Shown here piece by piece: positions 182 through 12,261 of a stretch of DNA of 12,261 nt. Within the stretch, counting starts at the first letter, position 1. The number at the start of each line of letters is the position of its first letter. The stretch comes from a virus. The notes beneath the pieces were generated by a model. The model was not told the DNA's origin, ran no database searches, and saw only the letters and a list, made by a program, of their open reading frames with translations. The translations under genes and the position numbers were made by a program. The DNA is taken from the UHGV virus genome UHGV-0361364. One strand, given 5' to 3'.

Positions 182-1360
182 ATGGCTATAAGCGACACAA
201 AACTGCGTACTATTTATGGTAAACCATATTCGGGCCCACAAGAAGTGGCTGATGCCGATGGCCTCAGCGTACGAATTTCACCGAAGGGGGTCATCCAGTT
301 CCAGTACCGCTATCGCTGGCATGGCAAGCCTAATCGACTTGGGCTTGGTCGATACCCATCCCTGTCTTTGAAGGATGCCAGACAGATCACTGCTGACTTG
401 CGAAAGCTCTATTTCTCAGGAACGGATCCACGCACCTATTTTGAAGAGAAGGTGGAGAACTCCATGACGGTCGCCCAGTGTCTCGACTACTGGTTCGACA
501 ACTACGTCTCTACAACTCTCAGAGAAAAGACCCAGGCACTTTACCGATCAACGGTTATGAAGCGCATGCATGACGCCTTTCCTAATCGTCCGGCATCTTC
601 TATCACGGTTAAGCAATGGGTTGACCTGCTTACCGAAGAAGAAAGAGATAATCCACGCCGAGCAAGACAGGTGCTAAGTCAACTAAGATCAGCAATAAGT
701 TGGTGCATGCGGCGTCAGTTGATAGATAGTTGCGCAATTATGAGCATCCAACCAAGGGACTTCGGCTCCCGCGCTGAGGTAGGGGATCGGGTACTGTCGT
801 ATCACGAACTGGCTAAGATTTGGCTTGCTATTGAAAGAAGCCGTGCGTCTACGTCAAATAAGCTACTTCATCAGATGCTTATGCTGTGGGGGGCGAGGCT
901 CTCAGAGCTTAGGCTGGCAAAAAAGACAGAATTTGACCTGCTGGAAAACGTATGGACCGTACCGAAAGAGCATAGCAAGATGGGTAATGTTATCCGTCGT
1001 CCAATCTTCGAACAAATTAAGCCTTTTCTCGAAAAGGCCATGACAACGTACAATGATGTTCTTTTCCCTGGAGAAGACATAAACAAACCGATCAGCATCG
1101 CTGCAGCCAACCGATTCGTAAATAGAATAAGGGGAGGGATGGATCTAGGTTACTGGCGAACACATGATTTCAGAAGAACGCTTGTTACACGTCTGTCCGA
1201 GATGAATGTCGAGCCTCATGTTACTGAGCGAATGCTCGGTCATGAACTTGGCGGGATAATGTCCGTGTACAATAAACACGACTGGATAGAGGCTCAGCGC
1301 AAAGCTTATGAGCTTCACGCTGATAAATTGTTCTGGCACATCAGGAGCATTTCTGGTTAA
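182..1360 (+). CDS. int: Tyrosine site-specific integrase, P4-type (DUF4102-like N-terminal arm-binding domain plus C-terminal catalytic domain)
   Basis: 392-aa ORF. N-terminus MAISDTKLRTIYGKPYSG...YRYRWHGK is typical of P4-family integrases; C-terminal HDFRRT and MLGHELGG...SVYNKHD fit the His-x-x-Arg and catalytic Tyr region of tyrosine recombinases. Transcribed away from the left edge, as for tRNA-adjacent P4-type integrases. Confidence 0.9.
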   Translation: MAISDTKLRTIYGKPYSGPQEVADADGLSVRISPKGVIQFQYRYRWHGKPNRLGLGRYPSLSLKDARQITADLRKLYFSGTDPRTYFEEKVENSMTVAQCLDYWFDNYVSTTLREKTQALYRSTVMKRMHDAFPNRPASSITVKQWVDLLTEEERDNPRRARQVLSQLRSAISWCMRRQLIDSCAIMSIQPRDFGSRAEVGDRVLSYHELAKIWLAIERSRASTSNKLLHQMLMLWGARLSELRLAKKTEFDLLENVWTVPKEHSKMGNVIRRPIFEQIKPFLEKAMTTYNDVLFPGEDINKPISIAAANRFVNRIRGGMDLGYWRTHDFRRTLVTRLSEMNVEPHVTERMLGHELGGIMSVYNKHDWIEAQRKAYELHADKLFWHIRSISG

Positions 1361-1532
1361 CGCCACCGTTAAGAATCCACCCTTCAACAGCTTCACGAAG
1401 GTATGATTTTGGGTGGGTTCTGACTGGCTTCGGAAATCCGTGCCGTTTGGTATAGTTCCAGATTGTCTGACGTGATGAAACACCGAGCTTGTTCATCACT
1501 TCTTTCTCAGGAATCAGGCTGGTATCGGTCAT
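1341..1532 (-). CDS. xis: AlpA/Xis-like excisionase or small HTH DNA-binding regulator
   Basis: 63-aa ORF MTDTSLIPEKEVMNKLGVSSRQTIWNYTKRHGFPKP... resembles the AlpA/excisionase family. GGAG sits 8 nt upstream of the ATG at 1532. Its 3' end overlaps the int 3' end by 20 bp in convergent orientation. Confidence 0.7.
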   Translation of the reverse strand: MTDTSLIPEKEVMNKLGVSSRQTIWNYTKRHGFPKPVRTHPKSYLREAVEGWILNGGVNQKCS

Positions 1533-1546
1533 CTTAATTCTCCAGG

Positions 1547-1573
1547 CAAAAAGAAACCGCCATATAGCGGCTC
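1547..1573 (-). terminator. Weak intrinsic terminator-like hairpin (minus strand) between the small membrane ORF and xis
   Basis: Stem CCGC (1557-1560) / GCGG (1567-1570) with loop CATATA. On the minus strand it is followed by UUUCUUUUU and then the xis SD. Short stem, so likely leaky. Confidence 0.3.
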
Positions 1574-1632
1574 TATCAGATATGTACAGGCCTCATCGAG
1601 TGTGAGGCGGTGTGATTTCTTTATTTCCACTC

Positions 1633-1848
1633 TTAATGTTTGTCAGTGAATGGTTTCTCCATCTCCATTAATGCCTTATTCATCTCCTTTCGTAACTCTA
1701 TAGCCATCCTGACGGCTTCAACCTGAGCAGGATGTCGGTTAATTGCTGGAGAATATCGTCGGGAGCGAAGGATTGAGAAAACAAAGATAATGCAAGCAAC
1801 TATCTGAATTGCATTGCATGTTATTGATACAATGTGAATTGCAGCCAT
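1633..1848 (-). CDS. Small hydrophobic protein, 71 aa (N-terminal transmembrane helix, charged C-terminal tail); function unknown
   Basis: ATG at 1848 follows a GGGGG SD. N-terminus MAAIHIVSITCNAIQIVACIIFVFSIL is hydrophobic, followed by a basic/amphipathic tail. Bracketed by hairpin plus U-run elements at 1857-1880 and 1547-1573. Confidence 0.4.
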   Translation of the reverse strand: MAAIHIVSITCNAIQIVACIIFVFSILRSRRYSPAINRHPAQVEAVRMAIELRKEMNKALMEMEKPFTDKH

Positions 1849-1856
1849 CTACTACC

Positions 1857-1880
1857 CCCAAAAAACCGCCATCAGGCGGC
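1857..1880 (-). terminator. Intrinsic terminator-like hairpin (minus strand); the stop codon of the upstream small ORF lies in its loop
   Basis: Stem CCGCC (1866-1870) / GGCGG (1875-1879), loop ATCA, followed on the minus strand by UUUUUU (1860-1865). The TGA of ORF 1872-2039 is revcomp of 1872-1874, inside the loop. Confidence 0.5.
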
Positions 1881-2039
1881 TGGGTGTTCTTTCAGTTCTT
1901 CAATTCGAATATTGGTTACGTCTGCATGTGCTATCTGCGCCCATATCATCCAGTGGTCATAGCAGTCGTTGATGTCCTCTGCTTCGATAACCCTGTCGAA
2001 TGGCTCTCCATTCCATTCACCTGTGACTCGGAAGTGCAT
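1872..2039 (-). CDS. Small hypothetical protein, 55 aa (below the ORF-track length cut-off)
   Basis: Hand translation of the minus strand from the ATG at 2039 gives MHFRVTGEWNGEPFDRVIEAEDINDCYDHWMIWAQIAHADVTNIRIEELKEHPAA then TGA. GGAG (revcomp of 2047-2050) sits 7 nt upstream of the ATG. Sits between two terminator-like hairpins. Confidence 0.45.
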   Translation of the reverse strand: MHFRVTGEWNGEPFDRVIEAEDINDCYDHWMIWAQIAHADVTNIRIEELKEHPAA

Positions 2040-2050
2040 TTATCATCTCC

Positions 2051-2076
2051 ATAAAACAAAACTCGCCGTAGCGAGT
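2051..2076 (-). terminator. Intrinsic terminator-like hairpin (minus strand)
   Basis: Stem ACTCGC (2061-2066) / GCGAGT (2071-2076), loop CGTA, followed on the minus strand by UUUGUUUUAU (2051-2060). Confidence 0.5.
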
Positions 2077-2197
2077 TCAGATAAAAGAAATCCCCGCGAG
2101 TGCGAGGATTGTTATTGTCTTTTCTTCGTGCATTTGTCGCACTTTCGGCACCATCCAGATAGGCACATCCGTCCGCAATTAACACATATAGGCCACA

Positions 2198-2476
2198 TCA
2201 TTTTTCCTCTTTTGGTTTATGAATCTGAATGGTCATGCCACTTTGAGTGGTGACTACAATGACAGAACCAGGCTGAAGGCTGTTAAGATTGAATGCTTCG
2301 TAAAACGAATCCAAGGCCAGTGCTTTTTTATTCTTTCGGTTCCACCAACGCCATCCCTTGCTACAGGCTACACTGACAATCCACTGTCCACTCCTGTAAG
2401 CCATATAAAACCAGATGAGCAAAACCTGAAGGAAGGCTATCCAGTCAATAATCGTATATTTCGCGAAGGAGTCCAT
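2198..2476 (-). CDS. Small membrane protein, 92 aa (one predicted transmembrane helix); function unknown
   Basis: ATG at 2476 overlaps the TGA of the DUF551 gene by 1 nt (TGATG). Strong SD AGGAGGTGA upstream. Sequence MDSFAKYTIIDWIAFLQVLLIWFYMAYRSGQW... has a hydrophobic segment at residues ~8-26. The longer ORF-track start at 2551 was rejected. Confidence 0.6.
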   Translation of the reverse strand: MDSFAKYTIIDWIAFLQVLLIWFYMAYRSGQWIVSVACSKGWRWWNRKNKKALALDSFYEAFNLNSLQPGSVIVVTTQSGMTIQIHKPKEEK

Positions 2477-3006
2477 CACTTCACCTCCTGCGGCGGTTCC
2501 GGTAGCGGCATCCAGTGTGACGGTTTCCACGACGCACCAGGAATTATCCACCCATCATTAGCGTCAGGATGACCCGGGATGTAAGTCGCCCATTTCATTC
2601 GCCAGTCACCTTTCCTGTCAAACTCCACGGCAACAAGAACGGCTGTTTTGGTATCCGGCATTCGCTCACTACAGCTTATCCAACTATCCGGAGTTGCCGG
2701 ATAGTTGCCATTCACAAGGTCAGCTCGAACATATAGCGTGTCATCATGGTGTTGATTGTGGCTGCACCACGTTAATTCGCTTAACTCGCCATCTTCTGGC
2801 CATACTCCAGCTGTTTGCAGCCAGATATGGGCTGGCGCATCTTGGCAAGGTGTATTAACTGGCAACTTGTAAGTTTGGCTTACAGGTTCGGCTTCCAGTG
2901 AGGCTAACGCAATCCGTGCCAGTTCCATTTGTTCACCACGGGTAAGCCCGTTTTCAAGCGGGGATTTAATGAACAATTCGATACGTTCTTTAGTGATAGT
3001 GCTCAT
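2476..3006 (-). CDS. DUF551-family phage protein
   Basis: C-terminal motif SHWMPLPEPP is the recalled hallmark of DUF551, common in lambdoid prophage early-left regions. Start set at the ATG at 3006, preceded by SD AAGGAGAG; the 54-codon upstream extension in the ORF track has no SD. Confidence 0.7.
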   Translation of the reverse strand: MSTITKERIELFIKSPLENGLTRGEQMELARIALASLEAEPVSQTYKLPVNTPCQDAPAHIWLQTAGVWPEDGELSELTWCSHNQHHDDTLYVRADLVNGNYPATPDSWISCSERMPDTKTAVLVAVEFDRKGDWRMKWATYIPGHPDANDGWIIPGASWKPSHWMPLPEPPQEVK

Positions 3007-5749: not shown

Positions 5750-5776
5750 CAAAAATAAAGGCCGACTATGCGGCCT
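5750..5776 (-). terminator. Intrinsic terminator-like hairpin (minus strand) directly after the 207-aa gene
   Basis: Stem GGCCG (5760-5764) / CGGCC (5771-5775) with the TAG stop of ORF 5766-6389 in the loop, followed on the minus strand by UUUAUUUUU. Confidence 0.5.
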
Positions 5777-6389
5777 CGGAAGGAAGTCCAATCATCTTAT
5801 TCAAATCTTCTACCCGTAAAGCAGGAAGTGCTGTACTTGCTTTATCTGCTTCTTTTGGTAGCAATTCTTTGCTTTCAGGCCAAACTTCAATAAGTCGCTT
5901 AACTGTTGTTACTGAGTTCAAAGCAGCCCATACATTTGATTCGATATCCTTTTTCAAGGCTTCAAGGTTTTGTTGCAATGCGCAGATTTCATCAAACCTT
6001 TTTGTTATTTCGTGTTCTGCGTCAAACATGCATTTATCTTTGGTCGGAGTAGGGAGCAATATATCTTCGCCGTTGCCGTCTTTCCCATATGAATGCCATC
6101 CAACCCTTCTGCCAGATACAGTCAGATAAATTGAAGTAGAACGAACATCGTATGAATAAAATGAACATCCCATCTTTTCAAGTTCTTCACTTACAGCTAC
6201 CAACTTGGATGATAACTGATCCACTTCCTCAGTTTTCTTTTTACCGCCAAACGCAATAACTCTGGCGTCAAGTGCAAGCTGGTTCTTTAACTTTGTTACT
6301 TCTTCAAGTTCAGTGAAAACCCCAGACTTAATTAAAGCGTTACGAGCGATTTCCTCTTTCATTCTCGTAGTTAAGCGGATTGATGACAT
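5766..6389 (-). CDS. Hypothetical protein, 207 aa, predicted largely helical/coiled-coil; candidate accessory (moron) gene
   Basis: ATG at 6389 preceded by SD GAGAGGAA; the ORF-track start at 6404 is TTG. No family recognised. Lies between ral and cIII and is bracketed by terminator-like hairpins at 6405-6435 and 5750-5776. Confidence 0.65.
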   Translation of the reverse strand: MSSIRLTTRMKEEIARNALIKSGVFTELEEVTKLKNQLALDARVIAFGGKKKTEEVDQLSSKLVAVSEELEKMGCSFYSYDVRSTSIYLTVSGRRVGWHSYGKDGNGEDILLPTPTKDKCMFDAEHEITKRFDEICALQQNLEALKKDIESNVWAALNSVTTVKRLIEVWPESKELLPKEADKASTALPALRVEDLNKMIGLPSEAA

Positions 6390-6404
6390 ATTAATTCCTC
6401 TCAA

Positions 6405-7170: not shown

Positions 7171-7476
7171 TCAATAAGCACCGTACGGTAGTTTACTGTA
7201 CAATTTTATTTTTTGGACTGCATGTATTTTGTTTCCTAATGGGTTTGAATCTTTGTAATAAATACTTCTATTTTTTCGAACGACTTCTTCTTTCTTCTTG
7301 CAGCAAAGGCTTCCTAGCGATGCTGCTTTGTCTGCTCTGACGCAACCAGAGAGCTTTAGCGCAATTTTTCGCGCCAGTGCTTCATTACTGCGTCGCTCGG
7401 CAATAAGTTCTGCTCTGCGAGCTTTGTAGCGGCTTTTTGCCGTACCTTTGGATTCTTTCCAGACAATGGTTACCAT
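7171..7476 (-). CDS. N: N-type transcription antitermination protein (phage-21-like arginine-rich motif)
   Basis: ATG at 7476 preceded by strong SD AAGGAG. The N-terminal arginine-rich motif GTAKSRYKARRAELIAERR matches, as I recall it, the phage 21 N boxB-binding peptide. First gene of the leftward operon downstream of nutL. Confidence 0.8.
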   Translation of the reverse strand: MVTIVWKESKGTAKSRYKARRAELIAERRSNEALARKIALKLSGCVRADKAASLGSLCCKKKEEVVRKNRSIYYKDSNPLGNKIHAVQKIKLYSKLPYGAY

Positions 7477-7586
7477 GATGGTCTCCTTTAAGTGGCTTTG
7501 GCGCATGACGCGTCGAGGTGCTTATCTTCTCGATCGCTGTCTTGCAGCTGCAATTCGCGCCATCCCCAAAACCACTCAAGTTCTGG

Positions 7587-7790: not shown

Positions 7791-8441
7791 TTAAGGAAGG
7801 TTTGCTAGCTTGGCATCAACGACAACGCCAATGATTTTACAGTTCCCATTGATTTCAATCATTGGGTATTGTGGATTGAGTGGTTTCAGGAATTTTCTAC
7901 CGGCATCAATAACTAACTTTTTGAATGTCGCCTCGTTTTCTCCTTCAAGTTTGGCGACTACCAACTTTCCATTACGTGGTTCGACTTCTGGGTCGACGAG
8001 AATAATCATCCCCTCAGGAATACTCAGTCCTGCCGGGGCAGTCATTGAATCGCCTTTAACGTCGAGCCAAAAAGAGTCTTCAGAACAATCTACCGTTGTG
8101 TCGTACCAGTTATCTATTGCACGCCTATGATATGGCTCTACAGCTTCCATCCAACATCCTGCGCTTACCCAACTAATTAGAGGATACGAACCTCTTGGAT
8201 CATGCCTGCTGTGATAGGCAATGTTTGAAAGACTATCCTCTCCTTTCAACAGGTAATCAGGGGAGCACTGCAAAGCCTTGGCTAAGGCCAATAGGTTTTC
8301 GCCATTGGGCTCAGTTTCAGATCGCTCCCATTGGGAAATAGCAACATTAGACACGCCAACCATCTTGCCAAGGGCAGCCTGCCTAATCTTGAGTTCTTTT
8401 CTGCGAGCGCGAATACGCTCACCCATCAGTTGTGTATTCAT
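7791..8441 (-). CDS. c2: P22 C2-type prophage repressor (HTH DNA-binding domain plus LexA-like S24 autopeptidase domain)
   Basis: 216-aa product is near-identical over its length to my recollection of phage P22 C2 (MNTQLMGERIRARRK...QAALGKMVGVSNVAISQWERSE HTH; GDSM serine motif; C-terminal VVVDAKLANLP). The ATG at 8441 abuts OR3, which suggests a near-leaderless PRM transcript. Confidence 0.95.
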   Translation of the reverse strand: MNTQLMGERIRARRKELKIRQAALGKMVGVSNVAISQWERSETEPNGENLLALAKALQCSPDYLLKGEDSLSNIAYHSRHDPRGSYPLISWVSAGCWMEAVEPYHRRAIDNWYDTTVDCSEDSFWLDVKGDSMTAPAGLSIPEGMIILVDPEVEPRNGKLVVAKLEGENEATFKKLVIDAGRKFLKPLNPQYPMIEINGNCKIIGVVVDAKLANLP

Positions 8442-11551: not shown

Positions 11552-12261
11552 TGCACAGAAAACCCCCAGCTAGGCTGGGGGTTCCGGAAAGCTTTCAGCT
11601 TTGAGCCAGTTATTAAAACCCCTTTTGATTTGTTAAAACACCTTGCGGTCTGGCAACTGCAAGTGTCAAACAAGAAATCAAAAGGGGGTCCCAATGGGGA
11701 ACGAAAAGAGCTTAGCGCACACCCGATGGAACTGTAAATATCACATAGTTTTTGCGCCAAAATACCGAAGACAAGTGTTCTACAGAGAGAAGCGTAGAGC
11801 AATAGGCAGTATTTTGAGAAAGCTGTGTGAGTGGAAAAGCGTACGGATTCTGGAAGCAGAGTGCTGCGCAGATCATATCCATATGCTTGTGGAAATCCCA
11901 CCCAAAATGAGCGTATCCGGCTTTATGGGATATCTGAAAGGGAAAAGCAGTCTGATGCTTTACGAGCAGTTTGGTGATTTGAAATTCAAATACAGGAACA
12001 GAGAGTTCTGGTGCAGAGGGTACTACGTCGATACGGTGGGTAAGAACACGGCGAAGATACAGGATTACATAAAGCACCAGCTTGAAGAGGATAAAATGGG
12101 AGAGCAGTTATCGATTCCCTATCCGGGCAGCCCGTTTACGGGCCGTAAGTAACGAAGTTGGATGCAAATGTCAGATCGTGTGCGCCTGTTAGGGCGCGGC
12201 TGGTAAGAGAGCCTTATAGGCGCATTTGAAAAACCTCCGGCTATGCCGGAGGATATTTATT
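11552..12261 (+). mobile_element. IS200-family insertion sequence (IS200/IS605 group, single Y1 transposase, no terminal inverted repeats); boundaries approximate, right end at or near the window edge
   Basis: Contains tnpA plus the structures recalled for IS200: left-end hairpin CCCCCAG / CTGGGGG (11563-11581); a long-range pairing CCCCTTTTG (11619-11627) with CAAAAGGGG (11679-11687) that sequesters the tnpA SD; right-end hairpin CCTCCGGC-TAT-GCCGGAGG (12234-12252) followed by ATATTTATT. Span of about 707 bp fits IS200. Confidence 0.7.
11694..12152 (+). CDS. tnpA: IS200 transposase TnpA (HUH / Y1 single-strand transposase)
   Basis: 152-aa product MGNEKSLAHTRWNCKYHIVFAPKYRRQVF...ADHIHMLVEIPPK...RGYYVDTVGKNT carries the HxH (HIH) motif and catalytic Tyr region, and closely matches recalled IS200 TnpA. 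Start at the ATG at 11694 after SD AAAGGGGG; the ORF-track upstream extension was rejected. Confidence 0.9.
   Translation: MGNEKSLAHTRWNCKYHIVFAPKYRRQVFYREKRRAIGSILRKLCEWKSVRILEAECCADHIHMLVEIPPKMSVSGFMGYLKGKSSLMLYEQFGDLKFKYRNREFWCRGYYVDTVGKNTAKIQDYIKHQLEEDKMGEQLSIPYPGSPFTGRK

Follow-up and report, generated by a model that had tools for sequence, protein, structure and literature searches.

Our study concerns a stretch of 12,261 nucleotides (nt) from the UHGV virus genome UHGV-0361364 (hereafter the window), and in it a block of small genes and hairpins on the minus strand at positions 1533-2476, between a gene of the DUF551 family and the excisionase gene xis. A first-pass annotation had described three small genes here, with products of 92, 55 and 71 amino acids (aa). 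All three are present on the minus strand, each with an ATG start and a Shine-Dalgarno (SD)-like motif 6-7 nt upstream, and their reading frames are conserved in relatives, but a fourth gene, the 28-aa cys28, had been overlooked. In the direction of transcription the region reads DUF551, DUF4752 (the 92-aa gene), cys28, hairpins t3 and t4, orf55, hairpin t5, the 71-aa open reading frame (ORF), which we call ORF C, a P22-type xis stump, a fourth hairpin and an AlpA-type xis. The elements between the two flanking genes are as follows.

2198-2476, minus strand: DUF4752/phrog_667 protein, 92 aa (Pfam PF15944, E=2.4e-36; phrog_667, E=2e-38)
2111-2198, minus strand: cys28, MWPICVNCGRMCLSGWCRKCDKCTKKRQ, 28 aa (29 aa if the start is at 2201), recognised by conservation and stop/start overlap
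2080-2110, minus strand: hairpin t3 (stem 2110-2089) and U-run; 9 pairs in the scan, -13.1 kcal/mol, z=-5.5
2049-2078, minus strand: hairpin t4 (stem 2078-2059) and U-run, then the orf55 SD sequence GGAG; found by the scan, -11.9 kcal/mol, z=-4.2
1872-2039, minus strand: lambda orf55 (lambdap35)/phrog_676, 55 aa (phrog_676, E=1.5e-38 over residues 1-55)
1860-1880, minus strand: hairpin t5 (stem 1880-1865), GCCGCC-TGAT-GGCGGT then T6; -17.7 kcal/mol, z=-2.8, within a 42-nt stretch and not alone
1633-1848, minus strand: ORF C/phrog_15342, 71 aa (phrog_15342, E=2.9e-52 over residues 1-71 of 71)
1529-1630, minus strand: 33-aa open frame that begins with the 5' stump of a P22-type xis (first ~16 codons, …LTLDEACTYL), truncated at the fourth hairpin
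1546-1573, minus strand: fourth hairpin (stem 1573-1554), t5-like, AGCCGC-TATA-TGGCGGTTTCTTTTT, then the xis SD sequence GGAG; found by the scan, -10.5 kcal/mol, z=-3.3

The region had been seen as a repeated architecture. It is not made of paralogous units: unrelated cassettes are joined at conserved terminator linkers. The first cassette holds DUF4752 and cys28 and ends at t3. The second, with t4, an SD sequence, orf55 and t5, belongs to a block (1860-2115) that is collinear with lambda 29106-29361 and 96.5% identical to it. The third consists of ORF C and the P22-type xis stump and ends at the t5-like hairpin that leads into the AlpA-type xis. In the exo-xis segment of lambda (ea8.5, t3/t4, orf55, t5, xis; 29078-29374), orf55 and the three predicted terminators are found as in the window, again shortly before xis, and transcription from pL under N is probably common to both (PMC4195576, PMC8614690). 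Upstream of t3, however, lambda has ea8.5 where the window has DUF4752 and cys28, and downstream of t5 it has the lambda xis where the window has an extra cassette (ORF C, xis stump and t5-like hairpin) followed by the AlpA-type xis. The integrase gene int also differs, being convergent in the window and co-directional in lambda.

Other genomes show different combinations of the same parts. HK140 passes from orf55 through a t5/t5' hybrid hairpin directly into the AlpA-type xis, so that positions 1564-1859 of the window, with ORF C, are an inserted cassette relative to HK140; orf55, flanked by t4 and t5, is here the second-to-last gene before xis, ORF C being inserted. Sf101 and IME10 keep ORF C and have most of orf55 replaced, and in HK106 a tgt-like gene is inserted between the hairpins t3 and t4. 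This last insertion (L003, 3238-4038) is annotated as queuine tRNA-ribosyltransferase and places a larger cargo in the t3/t4 linker slot. The early-left "ea" regions of P22-like phages (Sf101, IME10, HK620, ST104, phage L) resemble the window in their genes for Erf, Abc2, Ea22-like, DUF551 and DUF4752 proteins, in their predicted intra-operon terminators and in their extreme mosaicism. Two of these phages, Sf101 and IME10, carry ORF C, but no named P22 ea gene corresponds to the 92-, 55- or 71-aa ORF. The closest complete genome is that of E. coli M160133, which has the same prophage beside sbcB and matches the window at 98.8% over 1300-2517.

To locate the joints between cassettes, we took 110 related viral loci from IMG/VR and counted the positions at which their homology to the window breaks off.

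1860, minus-strand region, 77 loci: last T of the t5 run
2115-2118, minus-strand region, 82 loci: just upstream of t3, beside the TAA of the upstream gene
2093-2094, minus-strand region, 13 loci: between t3 and t4
1578-1590, minus-strand region, 18 loci: just upstream of the fourth hairpin
2040-2042, minus-strand region, about 10 loci: between the SD sequence and the orf55 ATG

The neighbours that meet at these joints are diverse. The sequence GGCGGTTTTTT, the U-run of t5, is abutted by at least five unrelated sequences (lambda xis, another xis, the AlpA-type xis, a gene starting MSDLAMK and ORF C), TAA-C-t3 is preceded by at least six different gene ends, and the linker made of t4 and the SD sequence is followed by at least four different genes. 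Some linkers are themselves hybrids, such as the t5/t5' fusion of HK140 and the fusions of CTTGC to CTGATT downstream of t5, which argues for homologous exchange inside short shared sequences.

We therefore read positions 1533-2476 as the promoter-distal and highly variable accessory region of the pL operon of an E. coli lambdoid/P22-like prophage, with four small non-essential genes in three unrelated mosaic cassettes exchanged at hairpin linkers, and give this reading a probability of about 0.8. For lambda, this promoter-distal tail of the early-left operon is known as exo-xis, for P22-like phages as "ea". In kind the region is an ordinary variable early-left tail, since hairpin-separated, swappable small genes are already known. 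The neighbouring features on which the operon assignment draws are these.

7791-8441, minus strand: LexA-type cI repressor
7752-7724, minus strand: pL-like promoter (promoter scan)
7626-7618, minus strand: boxA, GCTCTTTAA (read by eye)
7606-7587, minus strand: boxB-like hairpin (read by eye)
7171-7506, minus strand: N-peptide gene (Pfam N_peptide, E=0.004, 18.1 bits against a cut-off of 27.9, below the gathering score)
2476-3006, minus strand: DUF551 gene, 176 aa, the upstream neighbour (Pfam PF04448, E=2.9e-21)
1341-1532, minus strand: AlpA-type excisionase/regulator, 63 aa, with which the leftward operon ends (phrog_66 "excisionase and transcriptional regulator", E=1.9e-8; Pfam Phage_AlpA matched weakly)
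182-1360, plus strand: tyrosine integrase int, an ordinary phage integrase at the prophage end

All genes of the leftward string from 7752 to 1341 are co-oriented on the minus strand. Counted from pL, they encode N, Ral, a protein with an Nmad5 domain, Erf, Abc2, an Ea22-like protein and DUF551, and are followed by the small-gene region and the AlpA-type xis, which carries this name in the RefSeq records of related prophages and phages. A related prophage has the N gene annotated as "transcriptional antitermination N peptide". A strict scan, which makes this weak evidence, found no sigma-70-like promoter on the minus strand between 1341 and 7700. With no promoter-like site detected between pL and xis, N-antiterminated read-through from pL is the likely main mode of expression, as in lambda, and the suggestion of the first-pass annotation that these genes are expressed mainly under N antitermination is reasonable. 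Judged by their conservation, the small genes at the distal end of this probably N-antiterminated early operon are real. The AlpA-type xis (minus strand) and int (plus strand) are convergent, with 3' ends that overlap by 20 bp (1341-1360). Unlike in lambda, int is not transcribable from pL here.

Some further observations concern the operon and the window at large. Across the whole window, sigma-70-like matches are depleted (3 against 17.2 +/- 3.7 in shuffles) and terminator-like hairpins enriched (27 against 12.2 +/- 3.1). The 212-aa gene at 5766-6404 (minus strand) encodes a full-length Nmad5 (nucleotide modification associated domain 5; E=1e-70), an unusual passenger between ral and erf. 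A short way 3' of a DnaB-type helicase gene, at 11561-11684 on the plus strand, lies a full-length Rfam match to STnc490, an Hfq-binding small RNA (146 bits, E=1e-30).

The hairpins of the region are elements of intrinsic-terminator type, with a GC stem, a 4-nt loop and a U-run, as far as computation can tell. All four have the anatomy of such terminators, with a loop of 3-8 nt on a GC-rich stem of 5 bp or more and a U-run directly 3' (t5 by inspection), and those that were folded separately (t3, t4 and the fourth) are far more stable than shuffles. The consensus scan found these three within about 570 nt (minus strand, 1546-2115), against about 0.28 expected from shuffles (Poisson P of about 0.003); the expectation is our own arithmetic from 12.2 hairpins per 12,261 nt on two strands. 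The scan missed t5, which is clear on folding, apparently because greedy stem extension consumed its T-run. Terminator-like hairpins with U-runs do end near 2051, 1860 and 1550, as proposed, with folding energies of -11.9, about -10 to -11 and -10.5 kcal/mol, respectively. The more detailed picture of one hairpin, U-run and SD sequence ahead of each gene, with the upstream stop codon in the loop, survives in part. A hairpin precedes the 55-aa and 71-aa ORFs, and also xis, but not the 92-aa gene, whose ATG overlaps the stop codon of DUF551 (TGATG, 2478-2474). Ahead of the 55-aa ORF there are two tandem hairpins (2110-2089 and 2078-2059) instead of one. A stop codon lies in a loop in one case of three, that of orf55, whose TGA (1874-1872) is inside the loop of t5, whereas the 71-aa ORF stops 60 nt before the fourth hairpin and the 92-aa ORF 88 nt before t3. 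The stem of t3 begins directly after the TAA stop of cys28, with no spacer.

Three of these hairpins have counterparts in lambda, where t3, t4 and t5 of the exo-xis region were predicted by Bloch et al. with ARNold (PMC4195576 Table 4). The t3 and t5 hairpins are identical to those predicted for lambda (for t5 the hairpin and T-run, with different flanking bases), and t4 differs at one stem base. The t5 equivalent is annotated as a rho-independent terminator in HK140 (Hendrix laboratory). The fourth hairpin belongs to the leader of the AlpA-xis module. Across variants, the stem of t4 is kept through G-U pairs and one double change, and a few stem pairs show compensatory change. Where t3 is missing, another hairpin holds the same place before the conserved TTTCTTTTATCTGAAC-t4 linker, and different upstream genes bring alternatives. 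The lambda terminator tL3 was considered as an identity for the hairpins and dropped, since we take it to adjoin exo. Elsewhere in the operon, a stop codon lies in the loop of the hairpins after ral (6437-6416, minus strand, TGA) and after the Nmad5 gene (5777-5758, minus strand, TAG), and the hairpins 6831-6814 and 7792-7775 begin at a stop codon. Across the operon, stop codons in or at hairpins seem to be a common design.

Several points weigh against reading the region as exchangeable cassettes in an N-antiterminated operon. The breakpoint counts include shared ancestry, so that only the distinct neighbours (at least five) speak for independent events, and the 110 loci were chosen for carrying orf55 or ORF C, which favours breakpoints flanking those genes. 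Terminator activity, both here and for lambda t3-t5, is a prediction. The N gene matches its Pfam family only below the gathering score, and boxA and boxB were identified by eye. Because the promoter scan was strict, a weak internal promoter remains possible. Finally, the AlphaFold model of the DUF4752 protein, described below, is of low confidence.

Another reading of the hairpins gives them a main role in RNA processing, RNA stability or translation control, as protectors of 3' ends left by RNase cleavage, as sites for RNase III in the manner of lambda sib, or as structures that mask SD sequences. It has some arguments in its favour. Li et al. showed that a terminating ribosome represses almost completely a terminator lying a few bp beyond a stop codon (PMC4824070), and t3 abuts a stop codon while t5 contains one. 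When 2040-2125 is folded to minimum energy, t4 gains six further pairs with AGAUGA, which lies just 3' of the SD sequence of orf55. Intra-operon terminators are common in P22-like phages, and the literature leaves their role open, the authors of the phage L genome stating that it is unknown (PMC8022706). Yet a U-run follows directly 3' of every stem, which a pure stability or processing element does not need, and the putative SD-masking helix shows no covariation, its columns being invariant. We regard this role as the principal one with perhaps one chance in four, and it is in any case compatible with hairpins that act as terminators between exchanged cassettes.

What the small genes do is a separate matter. 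That two of the products are single-pass membrane peptides, as the first-pass annotation had it, is borne out by our analysis. The 92-aa product has one N-terminal hydrophobic helix (Kyte-Doolittle 19-residue maximum 1.78, residues 8-26). Its membrane anchor spans about residues 8-30 and is followed by a GWRWWNR motif and a small C-terminal domain; in AlphaFold, helix 9-45 is followed by a helix at 50-61 and a beta hairpin, with a predicted local distance difference test (pLDDT) of 68. The match to PF15944 scores 124.1 bits (cut-off 27) and extends over profile positions 2-84 of 84. In homologs, at 48-66% identity, the length, the N-terminal hydrophobic helix, the GWRWWNR motif (invariant) and the C-terminal domain are retained; a literature search with the term DUF4752 gave no paper. 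ORF C also has one N-terminal hydrophobic helix (maximum 2.38, residues 6-24), and its AlphaFold model consists of two plain helices, a membrane helix at 2-31 and a second helix at 40-63, separated by a basic loop (pLDDT 78). The positive-inside rule predicts an N-out/C-in orientation for both proteins, as anchors for small domains on the cytoplasmic side.

The third product is of another kind. Orf55 is acidic and not hydrophobic, a soluble alpha/beta protein identical at 52 of 55 residues (95%) to lambda NP_597778, with 580 relatives in IMG/VR. A published model makes it a small alpha/beta protein, for which a likeness to T7 Gp2 has been put forward speculatively (PMC8614690), and its gene lies within a lambda segment once implicated in blocking the initiation of host replication (PMC9239242).

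Prophage early-left regions often encode small membrane proteins with lethal or protective effects on the host, and in both the 92-aa and the 71-aa protein a single, strongly hydrophobic N-terminal helix precedes a basic stretch. This might suggest that they are membrane toxins, holin-like peptides or superinfection-exclusion factors, each gene being attenuated by its own upstream hairpin. We think this unlikely, at about the odds of one in five. The proteins of the region have no match to toxin, holin, superinfection-exclusion (Sie) or defence families in Pfam, NCBIfam, PHROGs and PADLOC. The holin-like reading fails in addition on context, since the genes belong to an early-left recombination and accessory operon rather than to a lysis cassette. 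A prophage usually expresses exclusion genes from a promoter of their own, but none was detected by the strict scan and terminators lie upstream. No Rfam family reaches its gathering score in 1500-2500, and hence no known antisense or toxin-antitoxin RNA was found there (type I, of the Hok, TisB or Ldr type); the 92-aa gene, moreover, lacks an upstream hairpin. DUF4752, cys28, Orf55 and ORF C are most likely early accessory factors with a putative role in modulating the host, and not lysis proteins.

Two of the four genes, ORF C and cys28, are easily taken for chance frames in spacer DNA. Among the matches listed from RefSeq complete E. coli genomes, no coding sequence (CDS) is annotated under the full-length copies of ORF C (69 genomes carry the segment) or under cys28 (carried by 183 of 5426), and ORF C is also unannotated in the records of Sf101 and IME10, while its exact protein stands in GenBank as "hypothetical". 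The close copies of ORF C are weak coding evidence when taken alone: they have 34 variable sites and a ratio of nonsynonymous to synonymous substitution rates (dN/dS) of about 0.5, the split between synonymous and nonsynonymous changes is not clearly better than in other frames, and a word-indexed protein search gave relatives only above 93% identity. An exhaustive HMMER search, however, found a homolog (P0051) of 74 aa, 46% identical and with the same architecture, which in another lambdoid prophage fills the corresponding slot, shortly before xis and int. The two genes are 55% identical in nucleotides, with a proportion of synonymous differences (pS) of 0.82, which is saturated, and of nonsynonymous differences (pN) of 0.35. 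The frame is unbroken in 31 near-identical copies, one of which has an in-frame 6-nt insertion. ORF C thus appears to be a real gene, because it has a syntenic homolog of similar length, 46% identical, under purifying selection. For cys28, the cysteine pattern, the length of 24-28 aa and the stop/start overlap are all kept behind at least five unrelated genes. We consider chance frames improbable, with odds below one in ten for either ORF. Two other candidates for distant relatives of ORF C were rejected, L037 as a remnant disrupted by an insertion sequence (IS) and L038 as a chance match inside an integrase. The former (L037, 1016-1342 and 2244-3026) represents the decayed end of a prophage, with the N-terminal half of ORF C replaced, and its flanking ORFs look transposase-like by eye.

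The 33-aa frame that follows ORF C is a different case. It crosses the fourth hairpin and ends in an ATGA shared with the xis start. In L201 a full-length P22-type xis (MESHSLTLDEACAFLKISRPTATNWIRTGRLQ…) follows the ORF C homolog, and E. coli ET82 has the same stump and hairpin between yfdT and an AlpA-type xis. The frame is probably a recombination scar, to judge from these junctions, a relic and not a gene. It had also been considered as a leader peptide controlling the fourth hairpin, which we reject, since it is missing from HK140-type junctions and is explained as a xis stump.

The ATG of the microORF cys28, at 2198, overlaps the TGA stop of DUF4752. Its product has two CxxC knuckles, and C5, C8, C17 and C20 are kept in all intact copies, while three degraded copies lack the second knuckle wholly or in part. 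A degenerate DNA pattern, which fixes residues 1-12, retrieved it from 77 IMG/VR loci as 20 peptide variants, 24-28 aa long in intact copies, with the consensus MWPIC-xx-CGRMC-x4-WC-x-[KR]-CDK. Residues 13-22, together with copies found by tblastn without the pattern, agree with the conservation seen in these loci. The tblastn search on phages recovered unannotated variants at 64-77% identity in the virulent phages C1, KFS-SE2 and Citrobacter Tr1; at the nucleotide level, identity is 65-77% in unrelated virulent phages that include sipho- and myophages. The 1-nt overlap between stop and start is found nearly always, behind at least five unrelated genes: DUF4752, a DksA/TraR-type zinc finger like lambda Orf73, and at least three other unrelated proteins. 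Selection on the peptide is visible in a pS of 0.8-1.3 (saturated) against a pN of 0.10-0.21. Only HK106 gp30 is annotated as such.

Searches with cys28 gave no family match in Pfam, NCBIfam, PHROG or PADLOC, no match to its pattern in a collection of species-representative genomes, and no occurrence of the peptide string in the literature searched. It weakly resembles the structural-zinc loop of alcohol dehydrogenases (E=0.036). The label "DUF1244" carried by some of its GenBank Third Party Annotation (TPA) copies was not reproduced by Pfam at E<=1, and a "NinF" partner (H130) was rejected as a deletion junction with ninF on the opposite strand. In five IMG/VR loci (L133, L142, L147, L157 and L186), a gene for a DksA/TraR-type C4 zinc finger is followed by the cys microORF and then by a gene starting MDYSKL with a GTGATG overlap. 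The closest parallels are the ATGA-coupled small genes of the nin region and the small zinc-finger proteins of phages (lambda Orf73/TraR, Ea8.5, NinF), with which cys28 shares the stop/start overlap and the short Cys4 type. It differs from Orf73/TraR, Ea8.5 and NinF in being much shorter (24-29 aa), in having no family match and in occurring also in virulent phages.

These patterns of conservation point to cys28 as a real, mobile and translationally coupled Cys4 microprotein, zinc-ribbon-like and probably zinc-binding. A more novel reading would make it a genuine mobile family of zinc-ribbon microproteins with a host-directed function of its own. Temperate as well as virulent enterobacterial phages would carry it, translationally coupled to a wide range of unrelated upstream genes such as DUF4752 and TraR/Orf73-like zinc fingers. 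Together with the 71-aa protein, it would then show that standard annotation systematically misses functional small genes in the best-studied group of phages. We put this forward tentatively, at somewhat less than even odds. Bolder still, the hairpins might be selected as portable joints that make cassettes exchangeable.

The cassettes invite comparison with morons, the units of promoter, gene and terminator described by Hendrix and Juhala. Like these, they are single accessory genes placed between conserved genes, with a rho-independent terminator at the end and horizontal spread. A hairpin follows each cassette, and presence/absence polymorphism is seen in HK140, which lacks the ORF C cassette, and in HK106, which has an extra one. 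They nevertheless fall outside the moron definition, since the strict scan detected no promoter of their own and they look promoter-less and dependent on pL and N.

Reading the region as exchangeable cassettes of the pL operon, we propose the following mechanism. Polymerase leaving pL and modified by N at nutL would read through all four hairpins, and the cassettes and xis would be expressed early after induction or infection. Polymerase without N would stop at the hairpins, which would insulate xis and the cassettes from spurious transcription. Since a ribosome represses terminators that lie just after a stop codon (PMC4824070), t3 and t5 would be masked while the upstream ORF is translated and would mostly affect transcripts that are not being translated; masking by the ribosome would not reach t4 and the fourth hairpin, which lie 30-60 nt from a stop. 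The conserved linkers of hairpin, U-run and SD sequence may also serve as short homologies for the swapping of cassettes between phages. Such swapping would fit the relaxed recombination that Erf and Red-type annealases catalyse; the leftward operon itself includes an erf gene. That the hairpins are instead structure-specific recombination sites with a dedicated enzyme, like integron attC cassettes, would fit joints that are nucleotide-sharp at hairpin edges in many contexts and single-gene cassettes bounded by imperfect inverted repeats, but is very improbable, because the hybrid linkers are what homologous exchange would produce, there is no integron-type integrase (int being an ordinary phage tyrosine integrase) and no conserved attC-like signature of extrahelical bases, and selection for intact genes alone also leaves joints between genes.

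Overall, much of what lies in this region was known already: three of the four hairpins and orf55 are those of lambda, and the 92-aa and 71-aa ORFs belong to catalogued families. The additions are modest and consist of the combination of cassettes, of ORF C and cys28 as real genes often missed by annotation, and of the sharp joints at the linkers. The region thereby provides a quantified example of lambdoid mosaicism, with joints at the nucleotide edges of conserved linkers made of a terminator and an SD sequence. It also raises the testable idea that terminators which abut or contain stop codons act only on transcripts that are untranslated or not antiterminated.

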